The translations under genes and the position numbers were made by a program. The notes beneath the pieces were generated by a model. That model searched no databases, had not been told where the DNA came from, and saw nothing but the letters and a program-made list of their open reading frames with translations. A stretch of 64,000 bases of DNA from an uncultured Gemmatimonadales bacterium (GTDB taxonomy: Bacteria; Gemmatimonadota; Gemmatimonadetes; Gemmatimonadales; GWC2-71-9), in NCBI GenBank assembly GCA_963842945.1, contig CAWJIM010000006.1:110716-174715 (forward strand). Direction: 5' to 3'. Position 1 is the stretch's first letter. Each line of letters begins with the position of its first letter. Shown in pieces: positions 27,240 to 60,936 of this stretch.

Positions 27240-27258
27240 TTGCCCCTCCTGGGCTCGA
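27240..27258 (-). mobile_element. att-like tRNA-Gln 3' fragment (T-loop to discriminator)
   Basis: 19/19 identical to 60893-60911. Confidence 0.7.
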
Positions 27259-27895
27259 GCCGCCAGGCCGAGCCCCAAAGAAAATAGCCGGTGCTCTTCC
27301 ACCGGCCATATGGCTGCGCCCAATCAGGACCGGCTTTCTCACGCCGCGTCACGCTTCCGGCGCTTTGCCCCTTTTCTGATTCGCTGCTGCTCGCCGTACC
27401 ACTCCTCGCTTCGGTCGTCGGCCGCGCCTCCCGCGACAAAGATCGCGCAGATCGCCACGACCAGAAGGAGCCACACGCACGCGCCAAGAAGAATGAGCAC
27501 GCTTTGAGCACCGCAATGTGAGTGCCCGCACGCGAGTATCCTACCAGCAGGATCGACAAGGATATCGAGCAGGAAACAGGTCAAGCCTTGGGGGTTGTTC
27601 TCTCAGGTTGCGAGGCCATGAGTTACGACGCGATGCAGCGACTTGCAGGAACCCCAGGGAAGGTCCGTGGCCCGGGTGATCTCCATAGAATTCGAGAACT
27701 ATCCCCAGCCCTGCGCTTGTCCCCAAGAACTATTCCAAAACGTAGATGGACACCTTAATCTCGGCAGATACTCTACTCTGGGAACGCCAATGCCATGACA
27801 TCGAACCGAACAACGCGGCCGCACTTTAAAGTTGACGAAAGCGAGGGTAAGTAAACCCGGACCAGCCTGTGGGCGCACGCGGTTCCGTGCGTCGC

Positions 27896-28366
27896 CTAGT
27901 TCTGGGGATCGTCGGCCGGATTCACGTAGATGACCTTCCACGGTCCCATCCCGCTCACCTGGGTTACGGTGGGTCCTTTCGCTTCGACGAAGTGATGGGT
28001 GCCCGGCGGCATCACGGCGAAGCTTCCGGCCGGGAGCGACTTCAGCGCGGCAGCGTCGAACTTATCGCCCACCCCCCAGCGGTAAGTCCCTTGGAGCACC
28101 GTCACCCGTTCGGCTACCGGGTGGAAATGGGGACCGATTCGATAACCATCCGGAAACGAGACCCGCATCGTGAAGGGACCAGCCTTCTGGGGGTCCCCCT
28201 CGAGGACCGACATTTTCGCCCCGGGCGGAATCCTGGGCGATGCCGGTGACCAGGTGACTTGGTCGGGCGTCAGCATGACGGCGCGGTGCCCGGCCGTGGG
28301 CGCATCCTGTGCGAGGGCTATTCCGGCGTAAAGGGAAAAGCCGAAGACAAAGAGAATCGGTCGCAT
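27896..28366 (-). CDS. secreted cupin-domain protein (DUF4437-like)
   Basis: Signal peptide; VLEGDP..GPFTMR..PDGYRIGPHFHP..ERVTVLQG..HH. Confidence 0.88.
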   Translation of the reverse strand: MRPILFVFGFSLYAGIALAQDAPTAGHRAVMLTPDQVTWSPASPRIPPGAKMSVLEGDPQKAGPFTMRVSFPDGYRIGPHFHPVAERVTVLQGTYRWGVGDKFDAAALKSLPAGSFAVMPPGTHHFVEAKGPTVTQVSGMGPWKVIYVNPADDPQN

Positions 28367-28571
28367 GGCAGGCTTCCAGTAGCAGATGACTGTCAGTCGC
28401 GAAGACAATCTGCGAAGCGGTTTCCGAGATGGCCAGCACGCGGTCTCTCCATGTCGGGCCTGCAGAGATGGTAATCAGCTTCCAGCCGGCCGCCATGCGC
28501 GCTGATGCCGCGCCCTTGTGTGGCTCCGCCTTACGCGGCAAATTGGCCAGAGGCTCCCATCTGGCTTCGCC

Positions 28572-29146
28572 ATGGACAATCCCCAGCCCGATATCGGTGA
28601 GGTCACGCGGCTGCTTCGGAGCGCGCGGGCGGGGACCGGCCGCGCTCGAACTGCTGGTCCCCCTGGTCTACGAGGATCTGCGCCGGCTGGCCCGGCTGCA
28701 GCTGGGGCACGAGTTCGGCGAGCGCACCCTGAACGCCACCGCGCTGGTGCATGAGTCCTACCTCAAGCTCGGCGCGGGAGCATTCGCCGCCACTGATCGG
28801 GCCCACTTTCTCGCCATCGCGGCCCGCGCGATGCGCCAGGTGCTGGTCGATCACGCCCGCGACCGCAAAGCCGCCAAACGCGGTGGCGGGTCATGGGAGC
28901 GCACCACGCTGACCGACGGCGCCTGGGTAGCGGGAGTTCGATCCTGACGGCGTTCTCCAGCTGGAAGAGGCCGTCGCCGCCTTGGAGCCACGCCAGCGGC
29001 AAGTCGTCGAGTGCCGATTCTTCGGTGGCATGGAAGAGCAGGAGATCGCAGAGGCCCTCGGCGTCTCCGAGCGCACGGTGCACCGCGACTGGATGAAGGC
29101 GCGTGCCTGGCTCTACCGCTACTTCTACCCCGAGTCCACCCGGTGA
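28572..29146 (+). CDS. ECF sigma factor, kinase-associated type, frameshifted
   Basis: EVTRLL, PLVYEDLRRLA, TLNATALVHESYL, AMRQVLVDHAR..KRGG, VSERTVHRDWMKARAWL. Confidence 0.85.
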
Positions 29147-32100
29147 GCGCAGCCCTCGATCAGACAATCCGCTTTTGCACCTCCGCCGACGGCGCGCGCA
29201 TCGCCTACGCGACCGTCGGGAGCGGGCCGCCCGCTGGTCAAGGCCGCCAACTGGCTCAGTCACCTGGAGTTCGACAACAACAGCCCGGTGTGGCGTCACT
29301 GGATCCGGGAACTTTCCCGGTCCCACACGCTGGTCCGCTACGACGAGCGCGGCTGCGGCCTCTCCGACTGGCAGGTCGACGAGTTCTCGCTCGATGCCTG
29401 GGTGCGGGATCTCGAGGCCGTGGTGGACGCCCTGGAGCTGGAGCGGTTTCCGCTCCTCGGTATCTCGCAGGGTGGCGCCATCGCGATCGCCTACGCCACC
29501 CGCCATCCCGAGCGGGTCAGCCACCTCATACTGTATGGGAGCTACGCCCGGGGTCAGTCTCACCGCGGACTCTCTGATCGCGAGCGCGAGGAGCGTGAGC
29601 TCCTCCTCAGCCTGATCCGGGTCGGCTGGGGCAAGGACCATCCGGCCTTCCGCCAGGTCTTCACCAGCCTGTTCATCCCCGACGGGACACCCGAGCAGGT
29701 CAACTGGTTCAACGAGCTCCAGCGGATTTCGGCGCACGCCTGAGAACGCCGCCCGCATGTGCGCCGCTTCTTCACATGCCTTGGACGTGCGGGAGCTGGC
29801 TCCCCAAATCCGAATCCCGACTCTGGTGCTGCACGGCACGGGCGACCTGCGGATTCCCTTTGCCGAGGGTCGTCTGCTGGCCTCGCTGATTCCGGGTGCC
29901 CGGCTGGTGCCGATCGAGAGCCGCAATCATCTCATCCTCGAGTCCGAGCCGGGGTGGCGCCGTTTTCTCGCGGAGGTGCGGAGCTTCCTCGGCGTTCCGC
30001 CGAGGCCCCCGAGCGGCCCCGCATCGCGGCGGCAACGGATCGAGGCGCTGTTCGACGAGGCACTCGATCTCGCAGCCCGGCGATCGCGCGCGAGCTCCTG
30101 GCCCGGGACTGCGCAGGGCGACCCGGAGCTCCGGCGCGAGGTGGAGGCGCTGCTGGCGGCCGCTGAACGGAGTGGCGTGACCGCCAGCTTGCCGGATGCC
30201 GTGGCGGGTCCCGCAGCGCAACCCACCGTCGCCGCCGGCCCGGACGATCTCCCAGTATGAGATCGTCGACCAGCTTGGGGCGGCGGCATGGGAGTGGTCT
30301 ACAAGGCGCGGGACCGGCGGCTGCAGCGGTTGCGTGGCGCTCAAGTTTCTTTCGCCATCGTTGAGCGCCGATCAGGAGCTGAAGCTCCGCTTCCTGCAGG
30401 AGGCCAAGGCGATCGCCTCACTCGACCACCCCAACCTCTGCACCATCTTCGAGATCGCGGAGCCGGAGGACGGGCAGCTCGTGCATCGTCATGCCCTTTT
30501 ATGAGGGCGAGACCCTCAAGCAGAAGCTTGCCCGCGGGCCGCTGCCGGTGTCCCAGGCGCTCGACTACGCGCTCCAGATCGCCGAGAGGGCTGGCCCATG
30601 CCCACGCCGCCGGCGTCGTGCATCGGGACATCAAGCCTGCCAACATCGTGGTGACGTCCGGCGGCCGGGTGAAGATCCTCGACTTCGGCATCGCCAAGGT
30701 ATCCCACGCCGACGCGAATCTCACCCGGACGGGCGCGGTGCTGGGTACGGTCGCCTACATGAGCCCGGAACAGTCGCGCGGCGAGCCGGTGGACCAGCGA
30801 AGCGATCTGTGGGCACTCGGCGTGGTGCTCTACGAGATGATCACGGGCCGGGCCCCATTCACGGCCGACTCCCTCGAGGCGCTGTTCTACGCCGTCCAAT
30901 GGCGGCACCCGGAGGAGCATCACGGCGCTCCGCCCGGAGGTGCCGCCCGCGCTGGAGGCACTGGTGCACCGCCTCCTAGAGAAGGAGCCGGTTCATCGCT
31001 ACCAGGACGCCATCACTGTCGCCGCAGAGCTCGACATACTCCGCACCGAACTGAACGCATCCTCAACCCAGGATCCGAGGCCAGTACGCGCGCGGTCGCA
31101 TGGCTCGTCATCGATGGTGGGTGGCGACTCACCCGCGGGGGCGCGGGCGGCTCCAGCCGGGGTCGACCATCTGGAGCGTGCAAGGTCGGCCTTCGCGCGC
31201 GCGGACTGGCGAGAGGCGTACTCGGCCCTGGCTGCAGCGGATGTGGAGGGCTCGCTGCAGGCCGAAGATCTGGAGCGGTTCGCAGAAGCCGCCTGGTGGC
31301 TGTCGAATGGACCGGCGTGCGTACGCGCTCGGGAACGGGCGTACCGGCAGTACGTCCAACGTGGCGAGCCTCGCGCCGCAGCGTCGGTCGCGCTCGCCCT
31401 GGCGGAGGATCATTTTCACCGCCTGGCGCGGTCAGTCGGGCAAGGATGGCTTCGGCGGGCTGAGCGACACTTGAAGGGGCTGCCGGACCGCTCCGAGCAC
31501 GGCTGGCTCAACCGACTCCGGTTCGTGGTCGCGTTGGACGAGGGAAGGCCGGACGCAGCCGTGGAATACGCCGACCGGGCTCTCGAGATCGCACGGCGTG
31601 TCGGCGACGCCGACCTCGAGGCCCTGGCCTTGCAGGACCGGGGTCGGGCCCTGGTGACGCTCGGCCAGGTGAAGGAAGGCATGGCACTCATCGACGAGGC
31701 GATGACCGCAGCGACCGCCGGTGAGCTGACGCCGCGTACCACCGGCAGGGCCTACTGCAACATGCTCAGTATCTGCAAGCGGCTGGGAGACTTCGGGCGG
31801 GCGGCGGAGTGGTCCGAGGCCGCGCAGACCTGGTGTGAGCCCCACGCCGAGTCCGGATATCCGGGTATCTGCCGGGTTCATCGTGCCGGAATACTTCGGC
31901 TCCGAGGTGCCCTGACGAAAGCGGAGCACGAGGCGCGGCGCGCGGCGACGGAGCTGGAGGATTTCCTGACCGACGTGGCAGGCGAGGCGTTCTACGAGCT
32001 GGGTGAGATCCGCCTGCGCATGGGCGATCTGCCCGCCGCGGCCGAGATGTTCGGTCAGGCACACTCGCGGGGCCGCGACCCGCAGCCGGGCCTTGCCCTC

Positions 32101-32554
32101 CTGCGAATGGCAGAGGGAAAGGTCGAGGCTGCGCGTTCCATGATCGAGCGCGCCCTGGTCGAGCTGGGGCTCACGATACTGGACCGGGCCAAACTGCTGC
32201 CCTCCGCAGTGGAGATCAGAGTCGCCTGCGATGACATCCCGGGGGCTGATGATGCAGCATCCGCGCTGGAAACCATCACCGCCACCTACACCGCACCCGC
32301 ACTCGTGGCCTTCGCCACTCAGGCGCGGGAGGGTCCAGCTCGCGCGAGGACAGGCCCAGCAAGCCATCTGGAACCTTCGGCGCGCCTGCCGGATCTGGAC
32401 TGAGATCGACCTGCCGGTGGAGCTGGCCCAAACCAGGCTCCTGCTCTCTCGAGCATACTCAGCGCTGGGGAACATCGACGAGGCGGAACTGGAGGAGCGC
32501 ACGGCGGAGGCAGCCATGGAACGCATCTTAAGGCAGCTCCGCTCGATGACCTGA
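29143..32554 (+). CDS. multidomain protein K4: alpha/beta hydrolase - Ser/Thr kinase - MalT-like TPR, many frameshifts
   Basis: GTGA overlap with [88 protein letters not shown] region. Confidence 0.75.
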
Positions 32555-32645
32555 CCACTCCCCCGTGGGGCATGTCTGCTGGAATGTCATTCCTGCGCAG
32601 ATACCTGGTGAGGACCACAATGCACCCGAACCAGGAGCGACAACC

Positions 32646-34058
32646 ATGGCACGCCTGCGTCCCGACCCATCCTTCTACCCCTCCCCCAAGCTGGCCATGG
32701 AGGCCCCGCGCGAACGGCTGGCGTACGTGGCCCTGCTCAGCAGCAGCGAGAACGGCCAGCGCGACGCCATCGGCGTCGTGGATACCGATCCCGATAGCCC
32801 CGCGTTCGGTCGACTGGTGGGGCGCACCGAGTTCCCTCAGGGCGGCAACGAGCTGCACCACTTCGGCTGGAATGCCTGCAGCTCGCACTTGTGTCCCTGG
32901 GCGGCCAACGCCCATGTCGAGCGGCGATACCTCATCGTGCCGGGGACCCACTCTTCGCGGATTCATATCCTCGATACCCAGCCCAATCCAAGGCAGCCCG
33001 CCCTGGTGAAGGTGATCGAGGGCGACGAAGTGATGAAGAAGACCGGCTATGCCGCGCCGCACACGGTGCACTGCGGGCCCGATGGGATCTACCTGAATGC
33101 CCTCGGGGCCCCCGATGGGAACGGCCCCGGCGGCATCTTCACCCTCGACCATGAGACCTTCGAGGTGAAGGGCCGGTGGGAGCAGGACCGCGGGCCGCAG
33201 TATCTGGCCTACGATTTCTTCTGGCACCTGGGTCACGACACCATGATCACCAGCGAGTGGGGTACGCCCAACATGGTCAAGGATGGGGTGAACCCCGAGC
33301 TGCTGCTGGCGGGCAAGTACGGCCGACAAGCTGCACGTCTGGGACCTGCGCAAGCGGACGCACCTCCAGGAGCTCGACCTCGGCGCCGAGCAGCAGATGG
33401 TGCTCGAGCTCCGGCCGGCGCACGACCCGACCTGTGCCTACGGCTTCGTCGGTGTCGTGCTGTCGCTCGCCGACTTGTCCAGCTCGATCTTCCTCTGGTA
33501 CCTCGACGGCTCCAGCGGGAACGGGGGCGAGTGGAAGGCGAAGAAGGTGATCACGATTCCGGCGATCCCCGCCGATGAGGCCGATCTGCCGCCGCTTCTC
33601 AAGGGATTCAAGGCCGTGCCCCCGCTGGTCACCGACATCAACCTGTCGGTCGACGACCGGTTCCTCTACGTGTCGTGCTATGGCACCGGCGAGCTCCTGC
33701 AGTACGACGTTCGCGATCCGTTCAATCCGGTCTTCACCGGCAGCGTGAAGCTCGGTGGCATCGTGGCACGCAGCGCCCACAGCTCCGCGCCCGATCGGCC
33801 GCTCAACGGCGGTCCGCAGATGGTGGAGGTGAGCCGCGATGGCAGGCGAGTATACGTCACCAACTCGCTCTACACCCCGTGGGACGCCCAGTTCTACCCC
33901 GACGGTATCAAGGGCTGGATGGCCAAGCTCGATGCGGCGCCGGGTGGCGGCATTGCTGCCGATCCGGGTTCTTCGTCGAGTTCGAGGATGGGCTTCGTCC
34001 CCACCAGGTGCGGCTGCAGGGCGGTGACGCGTCATCCGATTCCTTCTGCTACTCCTGA
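32646..34058 (+). CDS. selenium-binding protein SBP56 family (methanethiol oxidase-like), frameshifts ~33325, ~33965
   Basis: DPSFYPSP, NELHHFGWNACSS, PHTVHC, YDFFW, SEWG, GGPQMVEVSRDG, WDAQFYP, GGDASSD. Confidence 0.92.
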
Positions 34059-34074
34059 CGCGGAGGCACGGCAG

Positions 34075-34726
34075 ATGACCTGGACCTGGTGGGCGCTGTC
34101 GGCCCTGGGCGCTGGACACGGGCTCAACCCCGGGATGGGCTGGCTCTTCGCTGTCGCGCTCGGAATGCAGGAAAAGAGGAGCCGCGCCGTGTGGCGCGCG
34201 CTCCCGCCGCTCGCGCTGGGTCATGCGCTGGCGGTCGGCGCCGCCGCTCTCGCGGCGGCGGCGCTGGGCCAGATCGTGTCGGTTGATGCGCTGAAGTACA
34301 TCGTTGCCGCTTGCCTTCTCGCCTTGGCAGGTGTCCGGCTCGGCGGCACCGACACCCGCGCTACGGCGGCATGCGGGTCGGATTTCGGGAGTTGACCACC
34401 TGGTCATTCCTGATGGCCACAGCCCACGGAGCCGGCCTCATGGTGCTGCCGCTGCTCGTCCGGAAACAGATATCACGGCCGTGGGAGTCACATGCAGGGC
34501 ACGCCGCCTACGCCGCATCTGCAATTCCGCCGCTATCCGGGGCTCATGGAGGCGAGCCTCTGGGCCACTATTCGTCCACACCGCTGGCTACCTGCTCGTC
34601 ACCGGCTCATCGCGGTGATCGTCTACCAAAGCTCGGACTTCGACTCTGCGAACGATGTGGATCAATCTCGATCTCATTTGGGGTGGCGCGCTCCTCATGA
34701 CCGGCGCGCTCACGCTGATCCTCTGA
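34075..34726 (+). CDS. membrane protein co-encoded with SBP56, frameshifted
   Basis: LGAGHGLNPGMGWLFAVALG, LGHALA, WSFLMATAHGAGLMVLP, VHTAGYL. Confidence 0.75.
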
Positions 34727-34888
34727 CCTGGAGATGAGCCGGTAAAACGCACAGTGATGCGTTACGATTCGACATGGCGGCGCTCGAGGGCGCCGAGGAT
34801 TTGCCCGACGACAGCAAGAAACGGCTCCGGGTCAAATGGCTGCGGCAAGAAAAGCCCTCCTCTTGAGACCATCCGGTAGGGGGTGCGT

Positions 34889-35764
34889 ATGATCCGAAAT
34901 CTGGTGCTCACCCTTCTGCTGATCGTAGTAGGCGTGATCGGGGTTGTCTTCCTGGGTAGTAATTACCGACTCAATCGGAAATACTCGGTCGCGACAAGCC
35001 CGGTGTCCGAGCGGAGTGATAGCGCCTCGCTGGCGCGGGGGGACCATCTCTACCACAGTATCGGCTGCGCGATCTGTCACGGCGTAGATGGTGGTGGTGC
35101 GCTGTACCTGGACGCAGGCCCGATCGGGCTCGCCGCCGGGCCGAACCTCACTCGCGGTCGTGGCGGCATTGGGAGCAGCCGCTCCAACGGCGACCTGGTG
35201 CGAGCCATCCGCCACGGCGTACGCCCGGACAGTTCATCGCTGATCCTCATGCCGAGTGAGGTCTACGTGCACCTCACCGACGAAGATCTCGGGGAGATGA
35301 TCGGCTACCTCCGCCGGCTACCCCCCGTAGACCGGAAGCTGCCGGCGACCCATCTCCGGCTCCTGGGCCGGGCTTTACTAGCAGTAGGCAAGCTCAATCT
35401 GCTGGCCGCGCCCAAGACGCCTCCGTTTGCTCACCCCGCTGGAATCAGCCCCGGACCGACCGTCGCGTATGGCCGCTATCTGGCCGACATCGCCTCATGC
35501 CGCTCCTGTCACGGATCGGGGCTGTCCGGTGGTCCCATGGCCGCGCCCGGCGCGCCGCCGTCGTCCAACCTTACGCCCGCAGGGCTTTCGGCATGGAGCG
35601 AGAAGGACTTCTTCACCGCCATGCGCCGGGGGCGTCGCCCGGGCGGATCGATGCTGCACGAGATCATGCCGTGGAAGGAGTTCCGCAACATGACCGACGA
35701 GGAGTTGGCGGCACTCTGGCAGTACCTCCGGTCGGTTCCCGCCAAGCCGTCTGGTGAGAGGTGA
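34889..35764 (+). CDS. di-heme cytochrome c
   Basis: N-terminal TM anchor; CAICH and CRSCH; PNLT motifs; distal MP residues. Confidence 0.92.
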   Translation: MIRNLVLTLLLIVVGVIGVVFLGSNYRLNRKYSVATSPVSERSDSASLARGDHLYHSIGCAICHGVDGGGALYLDAGPIGLAAGPNLTRGRGGIGSSRSNGDLVRAIRHGVRPDSSSLILMPSEVYVHLTDEDLGEMIGYLRRLPPVDRKLPATHLRLLGRALLAVGKLNLLAAPKTPPFAHPAGISPGPTVAYGRYLADIASCRSCHGSGLSGGPMAAPGAPPSSNLTPAGLSAWSEKDFFTAMRRGRRPGGSMLHEIMPWKEFRNMTDEELAALWQYLRSVPAKPSGER

Positions 35765-35978
35765 CTACCGGCCACCCGATGTACCGGGTAGCGTCGCCAC
35801 CGGACTTGCCAAGAGCTCCTGAGGTCGGGCTGAGCAGGCTGCTGGCGTAGACAACCTGGATGGTGGCTTGTGACACGTGCGACGGAGGTGGGCCAGCTTG
35901 CGGAAGGATCTGTTGCTCACCCGAATATCGGAGTTTGCCGGCTGCCTTCCAGTTGTGTGTGCGCGGCTCGCGAATTGC

Positions 35979-37277: not shown

Positions 37278-37457
37278 GGTTAGAGCTCCCGAGGCACCAG
37301 CTCCACGCCCCGTTCCCCTTCTGCGATTGCCTCGGGTGCAGCGCGGGCTAGGAGATGGTTGCAGGAACAGCTCAACTCTTTGTCGGCGGTTGGACGGTCG
37401 AACAGCTGCTTGGGCCACCATCTGGCCTCGAGCGGAGGCCGAAGTACCTTAGACTCC

Positions 37458-50532: not shown

Positions 50533-50543
50533 GTAGCAGCAGC

Positions 50544-51752: not shown

Positions 51753-51769
51753 TCGGAGTCGCGGAGATC

Positions 51770-52768
51770 CTAGCTCTCCAGCACGAGACCCATCGCGACA
51801 TCTCTTCTCCTGACCCGCTCGATGGCTTCGTTCACTCGTGCGAGCGGCATGACATCGACGATAGCCGCGATGCCATGCCTCGACGAGAACGCGAGCATCT
51901 GCGTTGTATCCGCACGACTCCCTATGTAATTCCCGTAGATGGATCGCCGAGAATTGTTCAATAGCCCGCCGCTCAGCGACAGCTGCTTCAACGGGGACGC
52001 CACCAGGCAGAGCTGGCCCTGTGGCGTCAGCATTCTCACAAAGGAGTCAATGTCGAAGGCGACATTCAGCGTCGAGAGGATGAAGTCGAACTCCCCCTGG
52101 TACTCGGTCAGGCGCTCCGGGTCCGAGCTGTCCGCGAATGCGCCTCCCAGCCGCTCGATCAGCGCTCTCTTGGCTGGCGAATGCGAAAACGCCGTCACGC
52201 GGTGCCCCATCTTGTGGAGGAACTGTATGGCCAGGTGACCGAGCCCTCCGGCACCCAGCACCGCCACTCGAGAACCGTCGGCCAGTCCGGCCCGAAGAAT
52301 GCCTGCGTACACCGTCAGGCCGGACGAGAGCAGAGGGGTTGATGTGGCCGAATCGAGCTGCGGCGGGAGCCGGAAAGCGAACCGAGCATCGACAATGATG
52401 TGTTCGGCCAGGCCGCCGTATCGGTCGACGGCAATGACTTTCTGACTGGCGCAGAGTTGCTCGATGCCCCGCTGGCAGAAGGAGCAGTCGAAACACGCCT
52501 CCTGCTGGTACCCGATACCAACGCGATCGCCGGTGTGGAGGTCGGCGACCTCGGAACCGGCCTCTTCGACGATTCCAACGATCTCGTGGCCGGGGACCAG
52601 CGGATACCGCGCGTCACCCCAATCATTATCGATGAACTGGATGTCGCCCCTCGCGAGGCTACGATGCGTGATCCTCACCAGGACGTCACGGCCGCCGAGA
52701 GTCCTCTCATACAGGAAGGGCTCCGCCGTGCCGCCTTTCTCTCTGATCGCGTATGCTCTGATCTGCAT
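51770..52768 (-). CDS. MDR-family (cinnamyl alcohol dehydrogenase/Ahr-like) oxidoreductase
   Basis: PLVPGHEIVG, GDRVG, CFDCSFC..C, GAGGLG. Confidence 0.9.
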   Translation of the reverse strand: MQIRAYAIREKGGTAEPFLYERTLGGRDVLVRITHRSLARGDIQFIDNDWGDARYPLVPGHEIVGIVEEAGSEVADLHTGDRVGIGYQQEACFDCSFCQRGIEQLCASQKVIAVDRYGGLAEHIIVDARFAFRLPPQLDSATSTPLLSSGLTVYAGILRAGLADGSRVAVLGAGGLGHLAIQFLHKMGHRVTAFSHSPAKRALIERLGGAFADSSDPERLTEYQGEFDFILSTLNVAFDIDSFVRMLTPQGQLCLVASPLKQLSLSGGLLNNSRRSIYGNYIGSRADTTQMLAFSSRHGIAAIVDVMPLARVNEAIERVRRRDVAMGLVLES

Positions 52769-52905
52769 GATTCACTCGGGTTCCATGGCCCGTGCTGAAA
52801 ATACCCCCCACCTTGCGCGCGGTCGTGGGCCCGCTGCTGGAGATTTGCCGGCTTGGGCTAAGCAACTATCCACCCCAGCGGTATGTCTCACACTTCTGCC
52901 CGACG

Positions 52906-52932
52906 TGTAACCTTCAGCTGGGCTTTTGCGTA
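52906..52932 (+). promoter_or_regulatory. ECF-type promoter TGTAAC-N17-CGTA
   Basis: Same boxes and spacing as 17773-17799. Confidence 0.65.
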
Positions 52933-52982
52933 GCTACTGAGCCGAGCCGGTCGCGACACCTACACCCGTGCGGAGAATTTCG

Positions 52983-55305
52983 ATGTCCGTCTCTCATTCT
53001 TTCGTCTGGGCCTTGGCCCTGCTGTTGTTCTCTTCAAGCGTTGCCGCCCAGGACAGTCTCACAGTCGACCGGATCTTCAACTCCAAGGACTTCGCCCCAG
53101 AGCAGCTGGGTCGGGTTCGCTGGCTGGAAAGGGAAGCAGCATACCTCAGGCTGGAGGCGGACAGTGCCACGCCCGCAGGTCAGGCGCTCGTCCGCGATGA
53201 TGCCGCGACCGGCAGGCGTGCCGTTTGGATACCGGCCGCAAGGCTGGTACCACGCGGGGACTCGATTCCGTTGACGGTGGAGGACTACACGGTCTCGCCG
53301 AATGAGCGCAGGCTCCTGATTTTCACCAATTCGGAGAAGGTCTGGCGACAGAACACCCGAGGCGACTTCTGGTCGCTCGATTTATCAACCTGGCAGCTTC
53401 GAAAGCTGGGCGGCGCTCAGGCCAAGCCTTCCACGCTGATGTTCGCCAAGTTCTCGCCCGATGGAAATCGGGTCGCCTATGTCCGGGAAAACAATCTGTA
53501 CGTGGAGAATCTCGACGACCAGCACATCACTCAGCTCACCCATGACGGCTCTCGCACGGTCATCAACGGGACCTTCGACTGGGTCTATGAGGAGGAGTTG
53601 AATCTGCGCGATGGCTTCGTCTGGAGCCCCGATGGCGCTCGCATCGCGTACTGGCAGCTCGATGCATCCGGGGTCCGCGATTTCCTCCTGATCAATAACA
53701 CTGACTCGCTGTACTCCTTCACCATTCCAGTGCAGTACCCCAAGGCGGGCACCACGAACTCGGCCGCGCGGGTTGGGGTGGTGAGCGCGTCGGGCGGCAA
53801 CACCGTCTGGCTCCGTGTTCCCGGCGATCCCCGCAACAACTACATCGCCCGCCTCGATTGGGCGGGAAGCTCGGCTGAGGTCGTGGTCCAGCAGCTCAAC
53901 CGGCTGCAGAATACGCTGGTGGTGATGCTGGGGGATGCCGGGACCGGCCAAGTGCGTACCGTACACACCGAGAGGGATAGCGCCTGGGTGGATGTGGGGA
54001 ATGACCTACGCTGGCTACAGGGAGGAAAGAGCTTCACCTGGATCAGCGAACGGGACGGCTACCGGCACCTGTACCTCATCTCACGGGATGGGAAGCAGCA
54101 GCGCCTGCTCACTCCAGGCAGCTTCGACCTGCACAATCCTGCCAGCCCCTTTGGCGACCCGCTGGTGGTGGGACAGGATTCAGCCCGTGGTTGGATCTAC
54201 TACACTGCATCGCCCGAGAACGCCACCCAACTGTATCTCTTTCGAAGCCGTATCGACGGAAAGGGCCGACCGGAGCGACTGACTCCCAGGGACCAGTCCG
54301 GCTACCACCGATATTTCATCTCCAGCGATGGCCGGTGGGCAATCCACAACTTCTCTTCCTTCGGCACTCCCCCCATCACCGACCTGGTCACCCTTCCCGA
54401 GCACAAAGTGATCCGGACCCTGGTGGACAATCGGAGGCTGCGAGATGCTGTAGCCAAGCTGAGCCGGGGCCGAGCGGAGTTCGTGAAGGTAGCCGCCGGG
54501 CCGGGACTGCAACTGGATGCCTGGGTGATGAAACCGCCAGGCTTCGACTCCACCCGGCGGTACCCGGTCTTCTTCGAGGTCTACGGCGAGCCGGCGGCGC
54601 AGACCGTCCTCGATATCTGGAAGGGCGAAGGGTACCTCTGGGATCTGATGCTGACCCAGAAGGGATACGTGGTCGCCTCGGTCGATAATCGCGGTACGCC
54701 GGCTCCCCGCGGCCGCGCGTTTCGCAAAGCCATCTACCAGAAGATTGGAGTACTCAACGTCGGCGATCATGCGGCAGCGCTCCGCACCATGCGGAGCTGG
54801 CCCTGGGTAGACTCGACCCGAATCGGCGTGTGGGGCTGGAGCGGCGGCGGTTCGATGACCTTGCATCTGATGTTCCGCCACCCCGAGCTCTATCAGACCG
54901 GCATGGCGGTAGCGCCTGAAGCCGACGTGCGGATGTATGACACGATTTATCAGGAGCGTTACCTCGGACTACCGCAGCAGAGTCCCGAGGCGTACCGCGA
55001 GGCCTCAGCAATCAGCTACGCGGACAAGCTCCGCGGCAACCTGCTGGTGGTGCACGGCCAGGGAGACGACAACGTGCACTATCAGGCGACCGAGCGGCTG
55101 ATCAATGCACTGGTTGCGGCCAACCGGCAGTTCACCATGATGGAGTATCCCAATCGGAGTCACTGCATCTGCGAAGGGGACGGAACGACGCTGCATCTCT
55201 TTTCGCTCCTGACGCGATATCTGGAGCAGAATTTGTCCGCCGGGACCCCGCCCTGCGGCAACTGCACCGTCACCCGAGTCGACTTCGGCACGTTCCGGAC
55301 ACTGA
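52983..55305 (+). CDS. S9B dipeptidyl-peptidase IV-like peptidase copy 2 (1-nt shift near 55233)
   Basis: Close paralog of 17849; correcting the frame against copy 1 (NLPPGPRPA) gives TGA at 55303-55305. Confidence 0.9.
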
Positions 55306-55308
55306 GCG

Positions 55309-56553
55309 ATGGACCCAGCCACAATCCTTCATGCGGACCTGGACGCGTTCTACGCCTCCGTCGAGCAGATGCTCGACCCGTCGCTCAAGGGGAGGCCGAT
55401 CGCAGTCGGGGGCGGCGTGGTGCTCGCGGCCTCCTACGAAGCGAAGGCCTTCGGTGTCCACGGCGGCATGCCGGGTCGGCGGGCGCGAGAGCTTTGCCCC
55501 GACCTGGTCTTCGTCGGCGGGCACTTCAAGGAGTACCAACGGCTCGGCGACGCCGCGATCAGGATACTGGGCGACTTCACGCCGCTGGTCGAACGGATCT
55601 CGATCGACGAGGCTTTCGCCGACGTCGCAGGCTGCACCCACCTCTTCGGCACGCCGGCCGACATCGCCGCAGCGATCCGCCGACGGGTGCGCGACGAACT
55701 GGCCCTTCCCATCTCCATCGGCGTCGCCCGCACCAAGCACCTCGCCAAGATCGCCTCGCAGGTCGCCAAGCCAGACGGGCTGGTTGTCGTCGACCCGGAG
55801 ACCGAGCTCGCCTTCCTTCATGATTTGCCGGTGGAGATGATGTGGGGCGTCGGCCCGGCGACCAGGGCGCGACTCGCCGAAAGAGGCATCGCTACCATCG
55901 GCGACCTGGCGAAGAGCTCCCCAGGCGCGATTGCCCGGCTTCTCGGCCGTGCCGCGGGCGAGAGGCTGGCCGCCCTCGCCTGGAACCGCGATCCTCGTGC
56001 TATCCGGACCCATGTACACGCCCACTCGGTCGGAGCGCAATCGGCGCTCGGCCGAAGGCCCGTGGAGGACCCGGTCATCCGCCGGTCGCTCCGCCACCTT
56101 GCCGACCGGGTCGGCTCGCGCCTGCGGGCGAAGGGCAAGTGCGGGCGGACCGTGACGGTGCGGGTGCGCTTCGGCGACCTCCGCTCGGTTACACACGCCG
56201 TGACGCTGCCGCAACCTGTCGCCGCGACTGCAATCCTCGCCGAGATCGCCGAGGACCTGGTGCGAGCCGTCCTCAGGAGCCATCCCCAAGAACGCGCGAT
56301 CTCTCTCGTTGCCATCTCGGTATCGCATATCGAGGAGCAGCCGGCGGTGCAACTCGATCTGCCGCTCGGCCTCGCCGACGAGGCGTGGCGCCCGGGCGCT
56401 AAGGGAGGGATGGCGCACCTCCTCGCCGACCGCGCCATCGACGCGATCCGCGACCGTTTCGGCTGGGAATCCGTTGGCTACGCCTCGGTCGCCCTCGACG
56501 CCCGCCGCTCCGTTCCCGACGCCTTCCGCGAGCTGGCGGAGCGGCAGTTGTAG
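55309..56553 (+). CDS. dinB: DNA polymerase IV (Y family)
   Basis: ILHADLDAFYASVE, AASYEA, SIDEAF, LAKIAS..AKPDG, WGVG. Confidence 0.95.
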   Translation: MDPATILHADLDAFYASVEQMLDPSLKGRPIAVGGGVVLAASYEAKAFGVHGGMPGRRARELCPDLVFVGGHFKEYQRLGDAAIRILGDFTPLVERISIDEAFADVAGCTHLFGTPADIAAAIRRRVRDELALPISIGVARTKHLAKIASQVAKPDGLVVVDPETELAFLHDLPVEMMWGVGPATRARLAERGIATIGDLAKSSPGAIARLLGRAAGERLAALAWNRDPRAIRTHVHAHSVGAQSALGRRPVEDPVIRRSLRHLADRVGSRLRAKGKCGRTVTVRVRFGDLRSVTHAVTLPQPVAATAILAEIAEDLVRAVLRSHPQERAISLVAISVSHIEEQPAVQLDLPLGLADEAWRPGAKGGMAHLLADRAIDAIRDRFGWESVGYASVALDARRSVPDAFRELAERQL

Positions 56554-56621
56554 GGACTACGCCGGCGCCGTCACCGGAAAATCCTATGCGGCGTCTTGAG
56601 TCGTACCGTGCCCCCGCATGC

Positions 56622-57257
56622 TCAGTGTCCCGTCGCGTCCACCAGCTTCGGCGCCTGCTCGGTGAACGAGTAGCTCCCCTTGGGGCACTTGATCGCCGGG
56701 TTCGTCGGCGAGAACACGCCCGCCGGATTGTCCTTCCAGAGCCAGACGTGCAGGTCGTAGTGGTGGAGACCCTTCGGCTGCAGGGGCACGTGCCCCTCCA
56801 TCGGGCCCTGGAGCTCCTGGCCAAAAATCGCGGGACGAGCCGTGCCGGCTACCTCGGTCGGCACGAACCACTCCGCCGCGGCCAGACGCAGCCGGTCCCC
56901 GACCGGCTCGTAGATCAGCACCTGAGGCTTGGCTGGATCCAGCGTGGGACTGATGACCTGCAGGTTGAGGAAGTGCACGCCCATCCCGCCCGGCGTGTAG
57001 TGAATGCTACCGGCACCGCCCTTCACGTACTCCACGCAGGCGAGAGTCGAGAAGTAGCCGTCACGGATCGCAACTATCGGGTCTTGGTACTTCTCCAGCC
57101 CGGCGCGGGCATGCTGGAGCTCGGGTGACAACTCGGTGGGTCCGGCGGAGTACCCGTCGCTCTGGGCGACAGCCGAACAGGGGTAGCTCAACAGCGCCAC
57201 CAGGCCGAGGACAGGCACGAGAGGGCTGAAGAATCGGCGCTGGGCCGAGGTTCGCAT
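56622..57257 (-). CDS. secreted hypothetical protein with MGVHF / HYDLHVW motifs
   Basis: Signal peptide; GGMGVHFLN, PQVLIYE, HYDLHVWLWKDNPAGVF. Confidence 0.8.
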   Translation of the reverse strand: MRTSAQRRFFSPLVPVLGLVALLSYPCSAVAQSDGYSAGPTELSPELQHARAGLEKYQDPIVAIRDGYFSTLACVEYVKGGAGSIHYTPGGMGVHFLNLQVISPTLDPAKPQVLIYEPVGDRLRLAAAEWFVPTEVAGTARPAIFGQELQGPMEGHVPLQPKGLHHYDLHVWLWKDNPAGVFSPTNPAIKCPKGSYSFTEQAPKLVDATGH

Positions 57258-57281
57258 GGGGCCTCGATGGAAAGTATGCCG

Positions 57282-57306
57282 TACGGTGCGGGCAAATATC
57301 GGTTCC
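57282..57306 (-). promoter_or_regulatory. ECF-type promoter GGAAC-N16-CGTA
   Basis: Canonical ECF box pattern about 25 nt upstream of ATG 57257. Confidence 0.55.
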
Positions 57307-57455
57307 GTCAAGCGACCCGACCTCGCTGGTGCCGCGTACGACCACTGGACGGCAGAGGATCCGCGCCGCAAGTTGACGACTCGCATCAGACCCAGCGCAT
57401 CGAAGTTGTCGCTGGCTATCCCGAACTCCCGATCGCGCTGTGGAGGAGACTAACT

Positions 57456-57983
57456 ATGGACAAGGCCACCCTCGATCAAATGTGGGACCAGTTCCGCCAG
57501 AAATACGGCGTGTATCTCCGCCTGCTCGAGGCGATACCGGCCGAGCGCTACGCCACCCACCCGGTCCCCGGCATGCGCACGCCGCAGGAGCTGGCGGTAC
57601 ACACCTCATCGATCGTGCGCGACATCGCCGAGGGCGTGGCTAAGGGCCGCATCACGGCCGACGAATCATCGGAAGAGAAGTTCGCGGCGGAGCTAGGCAA
57701 TAAGGCCGCGCTTGTGGCCTTTGCCCGGCAGTGCTTCGAGCAGGCGGACGCGGCGGTCAAGCGGATCGGCGACGCGGAACTTGCGGCGATGGTGCCCACA
57801 CCGTGGAACGCGACCTGGCCCGGCTATGTCGCCCTCCACGTTCTGCAGGACGAGTTCCTCCACCACCGCGGCCAGCTCTATGCGTTCGCCCGCTGCTGCG
57901 GCGCAGAGCCGCCGTTCATGTGGGGGTACGCCGACAACGCTCCCGAGTACCAGCCACGCGCGGTCGCTGAGGCTGGGGCTTAG
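57456..57983 (+). CDS. DinB/YfiT-like four-helix-bundle protein
   Basis: GGAGGAG RBS; MRTPQELAVH, EFLHHRGQL. Confidence 0.88.
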   Translation: MDKATLDQMWDQFRQKYGVYLRLLEAIPAERYATHPVPGMRTPQELAVHTSSIVRDIAEGVAKGRITADESSEEKFAAELGNKAALVAFARQCFEQADAAVKRIGDAELAAMVPTPWNATWPGYVALHVLQDEFLHHRGQLYAFARCCGAEPPFMWGYADNAPEYQPRAVAEAGA

Positions 57984-58082
57984 CCGGCTAGCTAGGAAAA
58001 TCGAAGGGACGCCACCGAAGTAGAGTTGGGCCTTTCCAGTTCCACTCGAGGTCCTGAGCCCAAGGACGAGATCCAAATAAAC

Positions 58083-58104
58083 GGCCGGTGCGCTTGCACC
58101 GGCC
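58083..58104 (-). terminator. 9-bp hairpin downstream of tRNA fragment
   Basis: GGCCGGTGC-N4-GCACCGGCC followed by GTTTATTT on the minus strand. Confidence 0.6.
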
Positions 58105-58137
58105 TATTGCCCTCCCCTCGCTTGCTCGGGGCAGGCT

Positions 58138-58170
58138 CTGGGCTCGAACCAGGACTCTCCTGATCCAGAG
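58138..58170 (-). mobile_element. att-like tRNA-Gln fragment (anticodon loop to T arm)
   Basis: 33/33 identical to 60902-60934. Confidence 0.85.
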
Positions 58171-58189
58171 GGGCCGCAGTAACCAGCCG

Positions 58190-58301
58190 AAACTCCAGCA
58201 ACTTGCCACAATTTACGCGAGTTCGTGTCACCCGATGCTGGAGTTTGTTGGGTTTCATGCTGGACTTTGCTCGTACTTTACTCACTCAAATGTTAGAGTT
58301 T
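58190..58301. repeat. arm-type repeat array (TGCTGGAGTTT family)
   Basis: Inverted copy 58190-58200; direct copies at 58236 (exact), 58258 (1 mismatch), 58291 (2 mismatches). Confidence 0.7.
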
Positions 58302-58344
58302 GTCACACTCTCAACCGAGAGGCTTTGCGCTGATCTCATGTCAG

Positions 58345-58565
58345 AGGTCTTCTACGCGGGCGACGACGCCGGCGCCAAGGATACGGTGCGCCGGCTGGCC
58401 GGGAGCATCGGGTTCGAGCCGGTGGATGGCGGCCCGCTAGCCAACGCTCGCTACCTGGAGCCGCTCGGCATGCTCAACATCTGGTTCGGCTACGTGGGCG
58501 GCCGGGGCACGAACATCGCGCCGCGGTGGGACACCGCCGCGTCAGTTGTCCCTGTGGCCGTCTGA
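58345..58565 (+). pseudogene. C-terminal remnant of NADPH-dependent F420 reductase-like oxidoreductase
   Basis: VFYAGDDAGAKDTVRRLAGSIGFEPVDGGPLANARYLEP; no N-terminal Rossmann GxGxxG. Confidence 0.75.
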
Positions 58566-58595
58566 GGCAACGTCCTCGCGCGGTCGTCTTCCCCC

Positions 58596-59090
58596 TTACT
58601 TCCCGTCAATAGTCATGTTGCCGTCGATGTCACTGAGCGAGCCGTAGGGTCCGAAGTCGAGCACCCGGCTGGTGGTCTCGACCCGACGCCCCTTGTTGGC
58701 GCCTTCGGTGATCTTGCCGACCAGGTGGGTTTGACCCGAGACCACCTCGACGGTTCCACTCAACTTTGCTTTGAACGATTCTGAAGCCGGCACCGCGGTG
58801 ACGACCCAGGATGAATGAATCAGTGCCTTGCCGGCTTCCCCCGACGACCCCTCGTCGAAGCCGAACACGAGGGTTGCCTTCCCCTGCCGCTCGCCAGTCA
58901 CAGTACCCGTCATCGTGTACTGTCCCGAGCTGTCCCGCTTGATCGCTTTCACGTGATAGGACAACTCGATCTTATTATCCTGACTTGCCGTATCGGCCGG
59001 AGTCACACTCTGACCGTGCAGCGAGTTTCCGATGGGTACGAGCCCCAGGCTCAGCACCACAAATGCACGACTCTGGATTCTGGTGAACAT
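58596..59090 (-). CDS. secreted beta-rich hypothetical protein
   Basis: AGGAGG RBS, signal peptide, beta-strand-like composition. Confidence 0.7.
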   Translation of the reverse strand: MFTRIQSRAFVVLSLGLVPIGNSLHGQSVTPADTASQDNKIELSYHVKAIKRDSSGQYTMTGTVTGERQGKATLVFGFDEGSSGEAGKALIHSSWVVTAVPASESFKAKLSGTVEVVSGQTHLVGKITEGANKGRRVETTSRVLDFGPYGSLSDIDGNMTIDGK

Positions 59091-59234
59091 TGGTGGCCTC
59101 CTTAGGAGTATCGTCAATAGCTTCGGCTCAGCCGAACCTCCTCGGTTAAGCCGGGGCCCCCACTCGCCAACGTACGGTGCGGGACGCCCATTCTCAATGT
59201 TCGCTCAAGCTGACCCTTCTCTCCGTCACTCGAG

Positions 59235-60101
59235 CTATGCGGGCAGGCGCATCTGTTTCCGCAGACTCTTGTCGAACGCCGCGGTGGGAACAAAGCGCCG
59301 GAGCAGACTGATCTGGCGCGCGGCCCGTCCTGCGGTGTAGCGGCGGCGCGGATTGAGCTCGGTGGAGGCCTTCACCACAGCGCTCGCGACCAGCTCCGGC
59401 GTGTCGGCGGTCTTCATCCCATCCCGCAGGACTCCCTCCGCGTTGGTGCGTGCCGATCGATACACGTCGAGCTGCTGGTCTGCCTGGTAGACATTGCCCT
59501 CGAAAGACGTCCGGGTGTAGGCGGGCTCGACCAGCACAACTCGGACACCCGAACCCCTGATCTCATGATCCAGCGACTCGGAATAGCCTTCCACCGCGTG
59601 CTTGCTGGCTGCGTACAGCGCCATGAACGGCGCCGGGATCAGGCCCATGACCGAGCTGAGGTTGACGATCCGTCCCGCCCGCTGCTTCCGCATGGTGGGA
59701 AGGACGGCCTTGGTCATGCGAATCAGGCCGAACAGGTTGACGTCGAAGAGGGACTTCGCCTGTTCTAGCGACGACTCCTCCGCGCCGGCGACCAATCCCA
59801 CCCCGGCGTTGTTGACCAGGAGATCGACCCGGCCGGCCTTGGACAGCACTTCACCGACCGCGGCCTTCACCGACTCGTCGCTGGTCACATCGCACACCAG
59901 GTATTCGATACCCGGCGATTTCGTCGCCGGCGCCCGGCGTGAGGTGCCGAACACCCGATAGCCGGCCGCGTGAAGCGCCCGCGCGGTGGCCTCGCCGATC
60001 CCTCCCGATGCGCCCGTCACGATCGCCACGGGCCGAGTCTGCTGCTCTGATTGTTTGACATACCGTGCTCGCTTTCCGTTGAGGTCTACTTTCCATTGCA
60101 T
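59235..60101 (-). CDS. SDR-family oxidoreductase (start uncertain)
   Basis: VTGASGGIG, LVNNAG, YAASK. Confidence 0.92.
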   Translation of the reverse strand: MQWKVDLNGKRARYVKQSEQQTRPVAIVTGASGGIGEATARALHAAGYRVFGTSRRAPATKSPGIEYLVCDVTSDESVKAAVGEVLSKAGRVDLLVNNAGVGLVAGAEESSLEQAKSLFDVNLFGLIRMTKAVLPTMRKQRAGRIVNLSSVMGLIPAPFMALYAASKHAVEGYSESLDHEIRGSGVRVVLVEPAYTRTSFEGNVYQADQQLDVYRSARTNAEGVLRDGMKTADTPELVASAVVKASTELNPRRRYTAGRAARQISLLRRFVPTAAFDKSLRKQMRLPA

Positions 60102-60119
60102 ATATGACGATCATCATAT
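60102..60119. promoter_or_regulatory. TetR operator ATATGA-CGATCA-TCATAT
   Basis: 17-bp identity with 60752-60768. Confidence 0.8.
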
Positions 60120-60158
60120 TTCTAGGCAAACGCGAACCCGGCACGGTTGCATAGGGTA

Positions 60159-60753
60159 TCAGCCTGTTGGGGTGAGGTGGTTCAGCGCGGCCTCGCGCAC
60201 CGCATCGGAGAGCTTGGGGTCGTCCACGGCGCGGGCCAGGACCAGCGCGCCGAGCGCGGTGGCTACGGTAACGAGTGCGCGCTCGTGCGCCCCAGGCTGC
60301 CCCCAGTCAGGCGACTGGCGAGCGACCAGATCGATCATCTCCTTGATCCGGCGGGTGGCGGCCCGGCGCACCTTGGCCGACTGGCGTGGCATCTCCGAGC
60401 CGAGCGCGGCGACAGCGCACCCAGTCTCCAGCGCTTGCCACGTGCTCCTTTGAGAGATAGGTGCGGAGCATGGCCTCGAGCGCCTTCTTGGGCGTTGCCT
60501 CGGCGGCGACCCGCGTCAGGGAGGCCACTGTATCGGCGCCGGCCCGGTCGGCGGCCTCGGCCAGCATCCCCTCGCGCGAGTCGAAGTGAGCGTAGAAGCC
60601 ACCATGGGTGAGGCCGGCCTCGTTCATGATGTCGGCCACGCCCGTGCCGCCGTAGCCGCTGCGCCGAATGGCGCGGGCGGCGGTCTCCACGATGCGCTCG
60701 TGGGTGGCTTCCTTGCGGCTGGGGGCGGGTCGTCTCGAGGTGGCTGCGCTCAT
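60159..60753 (-). CDS. TetR-family regulator, frameshift near 60430
   Basis: GTGVADIMNEAGLTHGGFYAHF; C-term GALVLARAVDDPKLSD. Confidence 0.88.
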
Positions 60754-60768
60754 ATGACGATCATCATA
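60752..60768. promoter_or_regulatory. TetR autoregulatory operator overlapping the start codon
   Basis: ATATGACGATCATCATA. Confidence 0.8.
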
Positions 60769-60848
60769 CAACTGTGACGACTTAAGCGCAAGGGATAGGA
60801 ATTAACGTAACGGTGTACTGCTAGCAGAAATGGTAGCAGTGGGTATAG

Positions 60849-60889
60849 AAACGAAAAGGCCCGACCCACCGAAGTAGTATCGGACCTTC
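60849..60889 (-). terminator. intrinsic terminator after tRNA fragment
   Basis: GAAGGTCCGATACTAC-TTCG-GTGGGTCGGGCC-TTTTCGTTT on the minus strand; degenerate copy near 57997-58041. Confidence 0.7.
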
Positions 60890-60892
60890 AAG

Positions 60893-60936
60893 TTGCCCCT
60901 CCTGGGCTCGAACCAGGACTCTCCTGATCCAGAGTC
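60893..60936 (-). mobile_element. att-like 3' half of tRNA-Gln(CTG)
   Basis: GA-CTCTGGA-TCAGG-AGAGT-CCTGG-TTCGAGC-CCAGG-AGGGGCA-A: anticodon loop, T arm, acceptor 3' strand; 5' half absent. Confidence 0.88.

Follow-up and report, generated by a model that had tools for sequence, protein, structure and literature searches.

Genomic islands stacked in tandem behind a structural RNA gene have been described in several settings, and the published accounts frame the analysis of a 64,000-nucleotide stretch of DNA from an uncultured Gemmatimonadales bacterium (GCA_963842945.1, contig CAWJIM010000006.1, positions 110,716 to 174,715), hereafter the window, in which displaced 3' pieces of tRNA-Gln(CTG) separate short cassettes of one to three genes devoid of any integrase. 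The cis-mobilizable elements (CIMEs) of the ICESt1 family have lost their integration and transfer genes, keep attL and attR, and are stacked by later insertions at the same gene; tandems of a CIME and an integrative and conjugative element (ICE) can transfer together (PMC5704250). Like CIMEs, our units are without an integrase, stubs of which occur only in some cassettes of relatives, and transfer genes were not seen among the 66 open reading frames (ORFs) of the window (Pfam) or among 89 proteins of relatives (NCBIfam, 1e-25). They also retain att-type ends: profiles of left ends and of arms, the arm being the stretch upstream of a tRNA piece, match cassettes 1 and 2 of the window, the arms are homologous to those of integrase-bearing elements, and the two ends of cassette 2 are of different types. 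Unlike the CIMEs in the available text of PMC5704250, they form arrays of up to 19 units with a median of 2.7 kb, often holding one gene, with a genus-wide arm and no adjacent ICE, and near-identical single cassettes occupy different slots in different species.

In Dehalococcoides, the ssrA islands repeat several times in direct orientation over less than 100 kb downstream of a single structural RNA gene, with a conserved motif upstream of the repeat and an older, fixed region past the last one; 15 are without an integration module and 16 keep it (PMC3146451). Tandem repeats, a conserved upstream motif, module-less members and an older region past the last repeat are all found here too, although the target is the anticodon loop of tRNA-Gln(CTG) instead of ssrA, the enzyme a tyrosine instead of a serine recombinase, nearly all units are module-less, and the cargo consists of kinases, regulators and oxidoreductases. 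In the Islander collection, the tRNA gene (tDNA) and a displaced 3' fragment mark the ends of an island, anticodon-loop and T-loop sub-sites are distinguished, an integrase is required for each island, and tandems of three or more amount to only 4 in 2168 genomes (PMC4383910). The present arrays share the tDNA and the co-oriented displaced fragment, but have no tyrosine integrase gene of their own and would be filtered out. The tycheposons of Prochlorococcus seed tRNA-adjacent islands in which newcomers push older elements outward, leaving partial tRNAs and integrase fragments behind; the elements carry an integrase, unlike ours, and the available part of that account describes no conserved integrase-free cassette (10.1101/2020.12.28.424599). 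The array works like CIME accretion, in close parallel to the Dehalococcoides ssrA islands and to tycheposon-seeded islands.

Integrons and integrase-less attC clusters consist of short one-gene cassettes in an array that grows from one end. Our locus resembles them in these three respects, yet its joints are tRNA-derived att sites with arms of the protein-binding type, and no IntI lies beside the array. Want of an integrase sets the array apart from the Islander islands, the tycheposons and the integrons alike. Small palindromes in tandem, seen here in the T-loop of the tRNA, recall the repetitive extragenic palindromic (REP) elements, which are 20-40-nt palindromes in tandem, dispersed and tagged GTAG or CGTC (PMC3733652); unlike those, the units found here have a single target. 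Full-text literature searches, which cover few subscription journals, listed no description of such an array. Its novel features are how densely packed and how small the integrase-free units are, the genus-wide arm, the near-identity of single cassettes across species, a box common to arm and integrase leader, and the T-loop units.

Joints and cassettes of the window

The window is the final 64 kb of contig C6 of its assembly (G000; 4.3 Mb, 24 contigs, completeness 86.9%, contamination 6.0%), its right edge being the contig end. The original prediction, made from the letters of this stretch, proposed three minus-strand 3' pieces of tRNA-Gln(CTG) as att-type joints of tandem accretion, each with a hairpin downstream, and a decayed copy of the terminator at 60849. 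All of this holds: the copies expected by chance in the window number 1.7e-6 for the 19-mer and 3e-15 for the 33-mer, and 0 of 1000 random window stretches score as high as the terminator copy (~57990-58046). From the contig end inward, the features are:

63901-64000, minus strand: left end of cassette 1, a terminator-like hairpin with direct repeats (left-end profile from 14 relatives, E 1.3e-9; 405 bp at 92% identity to G015)
61094-63900, plus strand: cassette 1 cargo (ORF calls, Pfam)
62132-63642, plus strand: FAD-binding/BBE oxidase in two frames, cassette 1 cargo (Pfam)
61131-61718, plus strand: 195-aa protein without Pfam match, cassette 1 cargo
60935-61093, minus strand: arm B, an attR-type arm (direct repeats 61039-61059; box 60987-60997)
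60893-60936, minus strand: piece 1, tRNA-Gln(CTG) 3' half from just ahead of the anticodon loop (44 nt)
60811-60892, minus strand: type-B left end of cassette 2, a hairpin and two direct repeats at ~60822-60838 (profile of 9 relatives' left ends, E 6.7e-20)
58310-60810, minus strand: cassette 2 cargo (Pfam, comparison with relatives)
60307-60753, minus strand: TetR regulator, cassette 2 (Pfam)
59235-60101, minus strand: short-chain dehydrogenase/reductase (SDR) oxidoreductase, cassette 2 (Pfam)
58596-59090, minus strand: 164-aa protein, cassette 2
58338-58565, plus strand: short oxidoreductase-like piece, cassette 2
58171-58309, minus strand: arm A, an attR-type arm (profile built without the window, 129.5 bits)
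58107-58170, minus strand: piece 2 (58138-58170, 33/33 identical), a 23-nt hairpin insert (58115-58137) and a decayed tRNA end (58107-58114)
57990-58104, minus strand: decayed remains of a long T-loop unit and of a type-B left end, with a terminator-like hairpin (58083-58104)
3884-57989, no strand assigned: variable region, its older and decayed portion; 56565-56593 may be what is left of a left end
27259-27308, minus strand: long T-loop unit minus its first 19 nt, namely a hairpin, a T-run and a palindrome, the 3' arm of which forms the first bases of piece 3
27240-27258, minus strand: piece 3, tRNA-Gln 3' end from the T-loop, closing the hairpin unit (19/19 identical)
27174-27239, minus strand: type-A left end belonging to another, decayed cassette (left-end profile from 17 relatives, E 4.6e-8)

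The left end of cassette 1, of a kind that normally starts a few nt past the tRNA-Gln 3' end, is truncated by the contig end. Arm A contains a TGAG repeat (58276-58288), an inverted repeat (58236-58246 and 58189-58200) and a box (58217-58233); the profile score of arm B in the window is not independent, since the arm-B profile included the window copy. Piece 2 is longer than first noted, the hairpin insert splitting it before the tRNA sequence resumes. Similar T-stem inserts lie at the equal position in 4 other loci (L077, L078, L094, L207), and the 23-nt insert resembles a repeat family with 64 pattern matches in the genome. The right arm that would belong to the left end at 27174-27239 is no longer found on C6, and the genome has a single arm A; among the tRNA-Gln arrays, that of G000 is short and worn. 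The stretch 57900-61300 gave no sigma-70-type promoter, and Rfam analysis returned no match at the gathering level in the window, where the cassette joints are tRNA fragments; a weak Rfam microRNA match over the repeats of arm B was judged a chance one.

ARAGORN reports zero tRNAs in the window, and intact tRNA-Gln(CTG) was not found in the whole assembly. Its 5' 51 nt lie at C3:1-51, truncated by the contig end, right behind tRNA-Ala(CGC); the final bases of the window are 92% identical over 405 bp to a G015 sequence starting a few bases past the tRNA-Gln 3' end; and in the relatives G120 and G123 (the latter with a recA 94% identical) the C3 flank, the tRNA and the window genes stand on a single contig. 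The tRNA therefore lies in the gap between C3 and C6, just right of the window, where it had been predicted. The absence of an integrase from view is likewise confirmed: Pfam analysis of the 66 ORFs finds no tyrosine integrase, and none of the 4 PF00589 matches of the genome is on C6 or C3. Two of them read like XerC and XerD, which we presume them to be, and the other two are partial and lie beside tRNA-Leu genes; C24 holds a short stub of the integrase family that is relevant to tRNA-Gln.

Many genes are split over two frames between 918 and 63642 of the window (kinases, SBP56, DPP IV, FAD oxidase), and the recA of G000 (C24:41541-42161) matches positions 1-206 of 262 only; both probably reflect assembly indel errors rather than pseudogenes. 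Consistent with the stated contamination of 6%, G000 has two tmRNA genes that differ in their tags, and its tRNA-SeC and tRNA-Pro(TGG) genes are present in duplicate (C10, C15, C16, C1).

Arms and arrays across the genus

The relatives' set comprises 103 genomes of the genus (genomes are labelled G, loci L). Piece 1 has a match in 36 of 41 genomes searched, the intact gene counted, with up to 9 matches per genome and stacked copies in many. Upstream of the copies lie two conserved types of arm, A and B, of 140-160 bp. Arm A is present in 53 of the 103 genomes (a count that takes in the unpublished G047) and is multi-copy in this genus only; its box occurs in 13 of 21 genus genomes, often in several copies, as against single matches in 18 of 280 others. 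Most records sharing the arm-A pattern are Gemmatimonadales. Two short contigs filed under other phyla (L060, L084) carry the same arm and fragments, through either mis-binning or cross-phylum transfer. Viral contigs, scanned for a phage helper, gave 0 matches to the arm-A pattern.

Across 43 loci, the segments between junctions have a median length of 2,722 bp, and 87 of 107 end in an arm (81 A, 6 B). The longest array, in G119, holds 19 displaced junctions in 62.9 kb; G120 and G122 have 8 each. Among 82 cassettes of 8 kb or less, 38 have a single called gene and 22 a Ser/Thr kinase, and in 51 of 75 the gene nearest the arm runs antisense to the tRNA, counts that come from a simple purpose-made gene caller and are not corrected for kinship. 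One cassette of the G119 array (L129-L130) encodes ArsA, an arsenical pump ATPase, with a score above the cut-off of the family; transporters and genes resembling a glycosidase and a peroxiredoxin are found in other cassettes.

In 69 of 80 arms, 57-58 bp separate the arm A box from the crossover core; the sequence of the spacer is variable though its length is held within 1 bp. Arms are 80-93% alike between species whose recA differs by 7-16%, and covariation links one position of the arm to its inverted counterpart. Read on the strand antisense to the tRNA, a 12-bp stem of arm A has 94.8% of its cells paired in 94 arms and 18 double changes (0/500 shuffles; slid controls 20-47%), its mismatches being mostly of the kind that reads G-T on that strand. 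However, RNAalifold does not predict this stem in arm A (5 pairs, none covarying), and the window copy shows no folding advantage over shuffles (z -1.34 and -0.93), so that a structured RNA is only a lead despite the pair counts. A dif-like (Xer) reading of the arm, compared by eye with a consensus, was dropped.

Junctions also occur off the main arrays. Arm A and/or a tRNA-Gln fragment lies 300-450 bp behind an intact tRNA-Lys twice in G119 and once in G104 (L143:7256-7698, L148:7659-8188, L209:11264-11831), near-identical orphan junctions (arm A, fragment, left end) lie beside tRNA-Ala(CGC) in G090 and G104 (L194:8203-8725, L195:7956-8479), and a second complete tRNA-Gln(CTG) gene stands within the G104 array (L197:14431-14504).

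The integrase family and the arm/leader box

A tyrosine integrase family (PF00589 / phrog_1) is convergent with tRNA-Gln(CTG) in G090 and in G034, a member of another genus. It occurs in 53 of 301 genomes of the order, where it also targets Pro, Arg, Ala and Ile tRNAs, and has matches in 38 of the 103 genus genomes, mostly as short 3' stubs. Among the 30 best genus loci, the integrase at tRNA-Gln is intact in G090 only (type B), broken in G019, G052 and G092, and cut by the contig end in G072; part of the broken genes may be assembly errors. An intact type-A-like integrase is found in G034. The integrase-bearing elements measure about 12 kb (G090), 12 kb (G092), 16 kb (G052) and 22 kb (G034), and their scanned ORFs match integrase, regulator and methyltransferase families only, with no relaxase, mating-pair or capsid family seen among them. 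A PDB sequence search with the G090 integrase gave no match. PF00589 has no match in or beside five long arrays, three of whose genomes are without any match to the family. Just inside left ends, integrase 3' stubs of unequal length occur, about 6 in G119 alone.

The arms are tied to this integrase family because an element carries the box of its arm a second time, immediately ahead of its integrase gene. In arm A this box is 12 nt long; present in the window copy, it is also found upstream of three type-A integrase starts (0/500 shuffles each), and the box of arm B, also present in the window, upstream of the type-B G090 integrase start (5/500 shuffles); in G092, the box is altered in both arm and leader. 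Twelve further elements were taken, of which 4 had no attR in the fetched stretch and were left out; in the remaining 8, the own arm matches the own leader best or tied in 6, and the box lies 59-65 bp from the fragment in 6. Arms A and B are thus attR arms of the family. By eye, the leader copy appears to follow a -35/-10 pair. As it recurs in the leader, the box is probably an operator for an element protein such as an excisionase, or an antisense-RNA seed; the paired stem of arm A speaks for the seed, the RNAalifold and single-sequence folding results against it. Of the two integrase classes originally put forward as a possibility, two types do use tRNA-Gln, as arms A and B indicate, but both act at the anticodon loop and a T-loop class is not among them.

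Cassettes shared between species

Slot 3 of the G119 array and slot 1 of the G122 array each contain a copy of the window's TetR-SDR cassette (58171-60892). These two copies are 99.15% identical over 2,716 bp, both starting exactly at the anticodon-loop core, with recA at 88.6%. The window copy is 89-91% identical to them, and the unit, in other array slots of G119, G122, G090 and others, is 82-91% identical to that of the window. Similarly, a kinase cassette is common to G104, G088, G119 and G002 at 94.9-97.8% (recA 85.8-93.0%), and G017 and G024 have 1,393 bp in common at 97.1% (recA 87.3%). Integrase-free cassettes have therefore crossed species recently.

Eight pairs with shared cargo have a mean identity of 0.90 in the distal arm and of 0.81 in the core-proximal 45 nt (backgrounds 0.71 and 0.74), and the within-genome similarity of the proximal arm is slightly higher (0.758 vs 0.738, permutation p 0.036). 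All 5 genomes checked for ComEC have it.

T-loop hairpin units

Piece 3 had been tentatively predicted to mark an island of a T-loop integrase class. Instead, it closes a ~70-nt hairpin unit of a kind seen after many relatives' joints: T-loop pieces of relatives nearly always end a small unit (45 cases listed). Long units measure 67-87 nt and can sit at an intact gene because they begin with the tRNA's own last 19 nt; short units measure 21-24 nt, with a T first, a 4-bp stem-loop next and, last, a 3-bp stem capped by a T-N-C loop. Of 57 units parsed from 42 interrupted junctions, 51 have a complementary stem, in five stem types. On the other strand the unit loops read G-N-A, which we take to form stable DNA mini-hairpins. 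The units occur in tandem, tend to be of one kind per genome, and have a single base in common with the target, which does not fit the overlap of a classical integrase and suggests a single-strand mechanism. In five genomes, 29 of 29 pattern matches lie at tRNA-Gln T-loops inside arrays; since the genus-wide pattern search mixes true and chance matches (backward control 0-4 per genome), single matches were not counted. In the window, one long unit precedes piece 3 and a decayed long one follows piece 2; short units are absent. Relatives match no more than a ~130-nt junction module there (around piece 3; 10 of 102 genomes), and the wider flanks have no match in any of the 102. In one relative, a long T-loop unit possibly encloses ~4.7 kb (L067).

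The older part of the variable region

Relative to G120, the conserved backbone resumes near position 3,884 of the window and continues at 83-89% identity. The prediction that most of the window is mobile cargo stands to the extent that it is mostly variable DNA, but not as three discrete islands. The arms, the small true size of the units and their sharing across species had no place in that prediction. Discrete islands are not supported: the 31 kb between pieces 2 and 3 hold blocks collinear in G120 and G123. The G120 blocks of the region are 57983-52898, 51762-51405, 41523-40667, 37289-36022, 17709-16108, 14272-13143 and 11769-11086, and G123 shares 57985-51400 at 98%. The accessory genes of 3884-57989 encode Ser/Thr kinases, ECF sigma factors, peptidases and transporters (Pfam), partly collinear with close relatives. 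The stretch from 27 to 58 kb is thus a mosaic, the old and eroding part of the hotspot and not one island. Two related DPP IV/S9 peptidase genes (17879-20235, 52983-55823) and two BTAD regulators (21839-22732, 25112-26821) also lie in the variable region.

Proposed mechanism and alternative explanations

The best explanation of the whole, and in our judgement a reasonably probable one, is a CIME-type accretion array whose trimmed cassettes still move via a borrowed integrase and homologous arm exchange. The right part of the window belongs to the array behind tRNA-Gln(CTG), a hotspot of one tyrosine integrase family that crosses over in the anticodon loop, and the rare 12-22-kb integrase-bearing elements, which do occur in these genomes, would insert there. 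Deletion would then trim them to cassettes of ~1-5 kb that keep both att ends and lose the integrase, an origin suggested by the different lengths of the stubs inside left ends. New insertions at the tRNA would push older cassettes outward, where their arms would decay. The trimmed cassettes remain mobile between species, as their near-identity shows. Movement most likely mixes site-specific recombination by a passing helper, to which the constant box-to-core spacing, the conservation of the arms and the core-exact boundary point, with homologous exchange between repeated arms. Piece 3 belongs to a separate layer of tiny hairpin units entering the T-loop of the tRNA or of displaced pieces.

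Several observations weigh against this explanation. Among the 30 best loci of the 103-genome search, the genus yielded no intact type-A integrase, and a metagenome scan for one, with 187 candidates, left a single locus whose gene is broken into two frames. The arms decay only weakly with slot number (rho -0.28, p 0.05, n 49, not corrected for kinship). Of the 31 cassettes that could be classified (56 of 87 could not), 10 have a left end of one type and a right end of the other, cassette 2 of the window among them. The two closest pairs are only 84% and 69% identical in the core-proximal 45 nt as against 97.5% in the distal arm, which fits recombination within the arm better than a clean exchange from core to core. 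Sharing of accessory genes at 94-98% is also seen where there is no att boundary, and G004, G120 and G123 have the TetR-SDR unit but no arms around it. No circle, empty site or excision was seen; four read runs, containing at most 27% of the words, gave only contigs of other samples and organisms and no usable joint.

A rival explanation is a graveyard of islands, in which each cassette is the dead remnant of its own full element, the arms are alike by descent, and later moves result from RecA-type exchange after DNA uptake with the junctions as homology. The unequal integrase stubs, the arm chimerism of shared pairs together with the slightly higher within-genome similarity of proximal arms, the mismatched end types, the ubiquity of ComEC in the genomes checked and the att-independent sharing all agree with it. 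However, descent alone does not readily account for a box-to-core spacing held within 1 bp despite a variable spacer, for the arm position that covaries with its inverted partner, for arms this alike given the divergence of recA, or for a best shared pair that begins exactly at the core, and stubs are present in a minority of cassettes only; we regard a graveyard as rather unlikely. The arm chimerism, mismatched ends, att-free sharing, ComEC and armless TetR-SDR units nevertheless indicate that homologous exchange contributes. An integron-like system, in which a resident chromosomal enzyme, and not a passing element, makes cassettes from captured genes and adds them to the array at the tRNA, would suit the single-gene cassettes with their antisense arm-proximal genes, the arrays of up to 19 and the expansion restricted to the genus, but no recombinase gene lies in or beside the arrays, three of the five long-array genomes are without a match to the integrase family, and the arms are those of mobile-element integrases, which makes it very improbable. 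Hardly credible is the scheme of the original prediction, with three large islands of two integrase classes (anticodon loop and T-loop) filling most of the window: the pieces do begin at two tRNA sub-sites, and the L067 unit may enclose a long stretch, but piece 3 closes a ~70-nt unit, and the partial collinearity of the stretch between pieces 2 and 3 with G120 and G123 largely refutes it.

CIME-type accretion and the T-loop units may be combined in a joint reading that we put forward as a tentative possibility. The genus would have a working, integrase-free cassette system in which one-gene att cassettes are excised and reinserted by the integrase of rare passing elements and traded between species. 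A second, as yet undescribed single-strand mechanism would write 21-24-nt dumbbell hairpins, and 67-87-nt forms that restore the tRNA end, into one T-loop position with one shared base, giving short, lineage-typical tandem tracts at older joints.

Other tRNA sites of the genome

A second stack in G000 comprises three co-oriented tRNA-Leu-like 3' fragments (C19:553729, 557247 and 558874), 3.5 and 1.6 kb apart, the first interval of which holds a kinase gene 82-92% identical to the tRNA-Gln cassette kinases of G119, G120, G122 and G020. Further 3' fragments derive from tRNA-Cys (2), Phe (2), Leu(CAA) (2), Leu(TAA), Met, Ala(TGC) and Ile (C19:273686-279405; C5:247-6641; C16:27277-72622; C18:68060-68104 and 141192-141235; C24:159016-159059 and 493013-493054), and are tRNA-targeted islands or remnants. 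Accretion as such is therefore ordinary in this genome, other tRNAs carrying one to three fragments too. PF00589 matches about 30 residues above the usual length, as we would expect of integron integrases, occur in G017 (C96:4542-5144), G007 (C144, C38), G009 (C160), G012 (C204), G014 (C7) and G022 (C384), with no link to the arrays.

Implications

The arms, two helper integrases and one species-crossing cassette are now defined, and the T-loop hairpin units represent a precise, site-specific insertion with no known enzyme. Island finders that depend on an integrase are built to drop such arrays, so that these may be common and unrecorded. For this uncultured Gemmatimonadales genus, the arrays suggest a way to stock and swap accessory genes, many of them Ser/Thr kinases.

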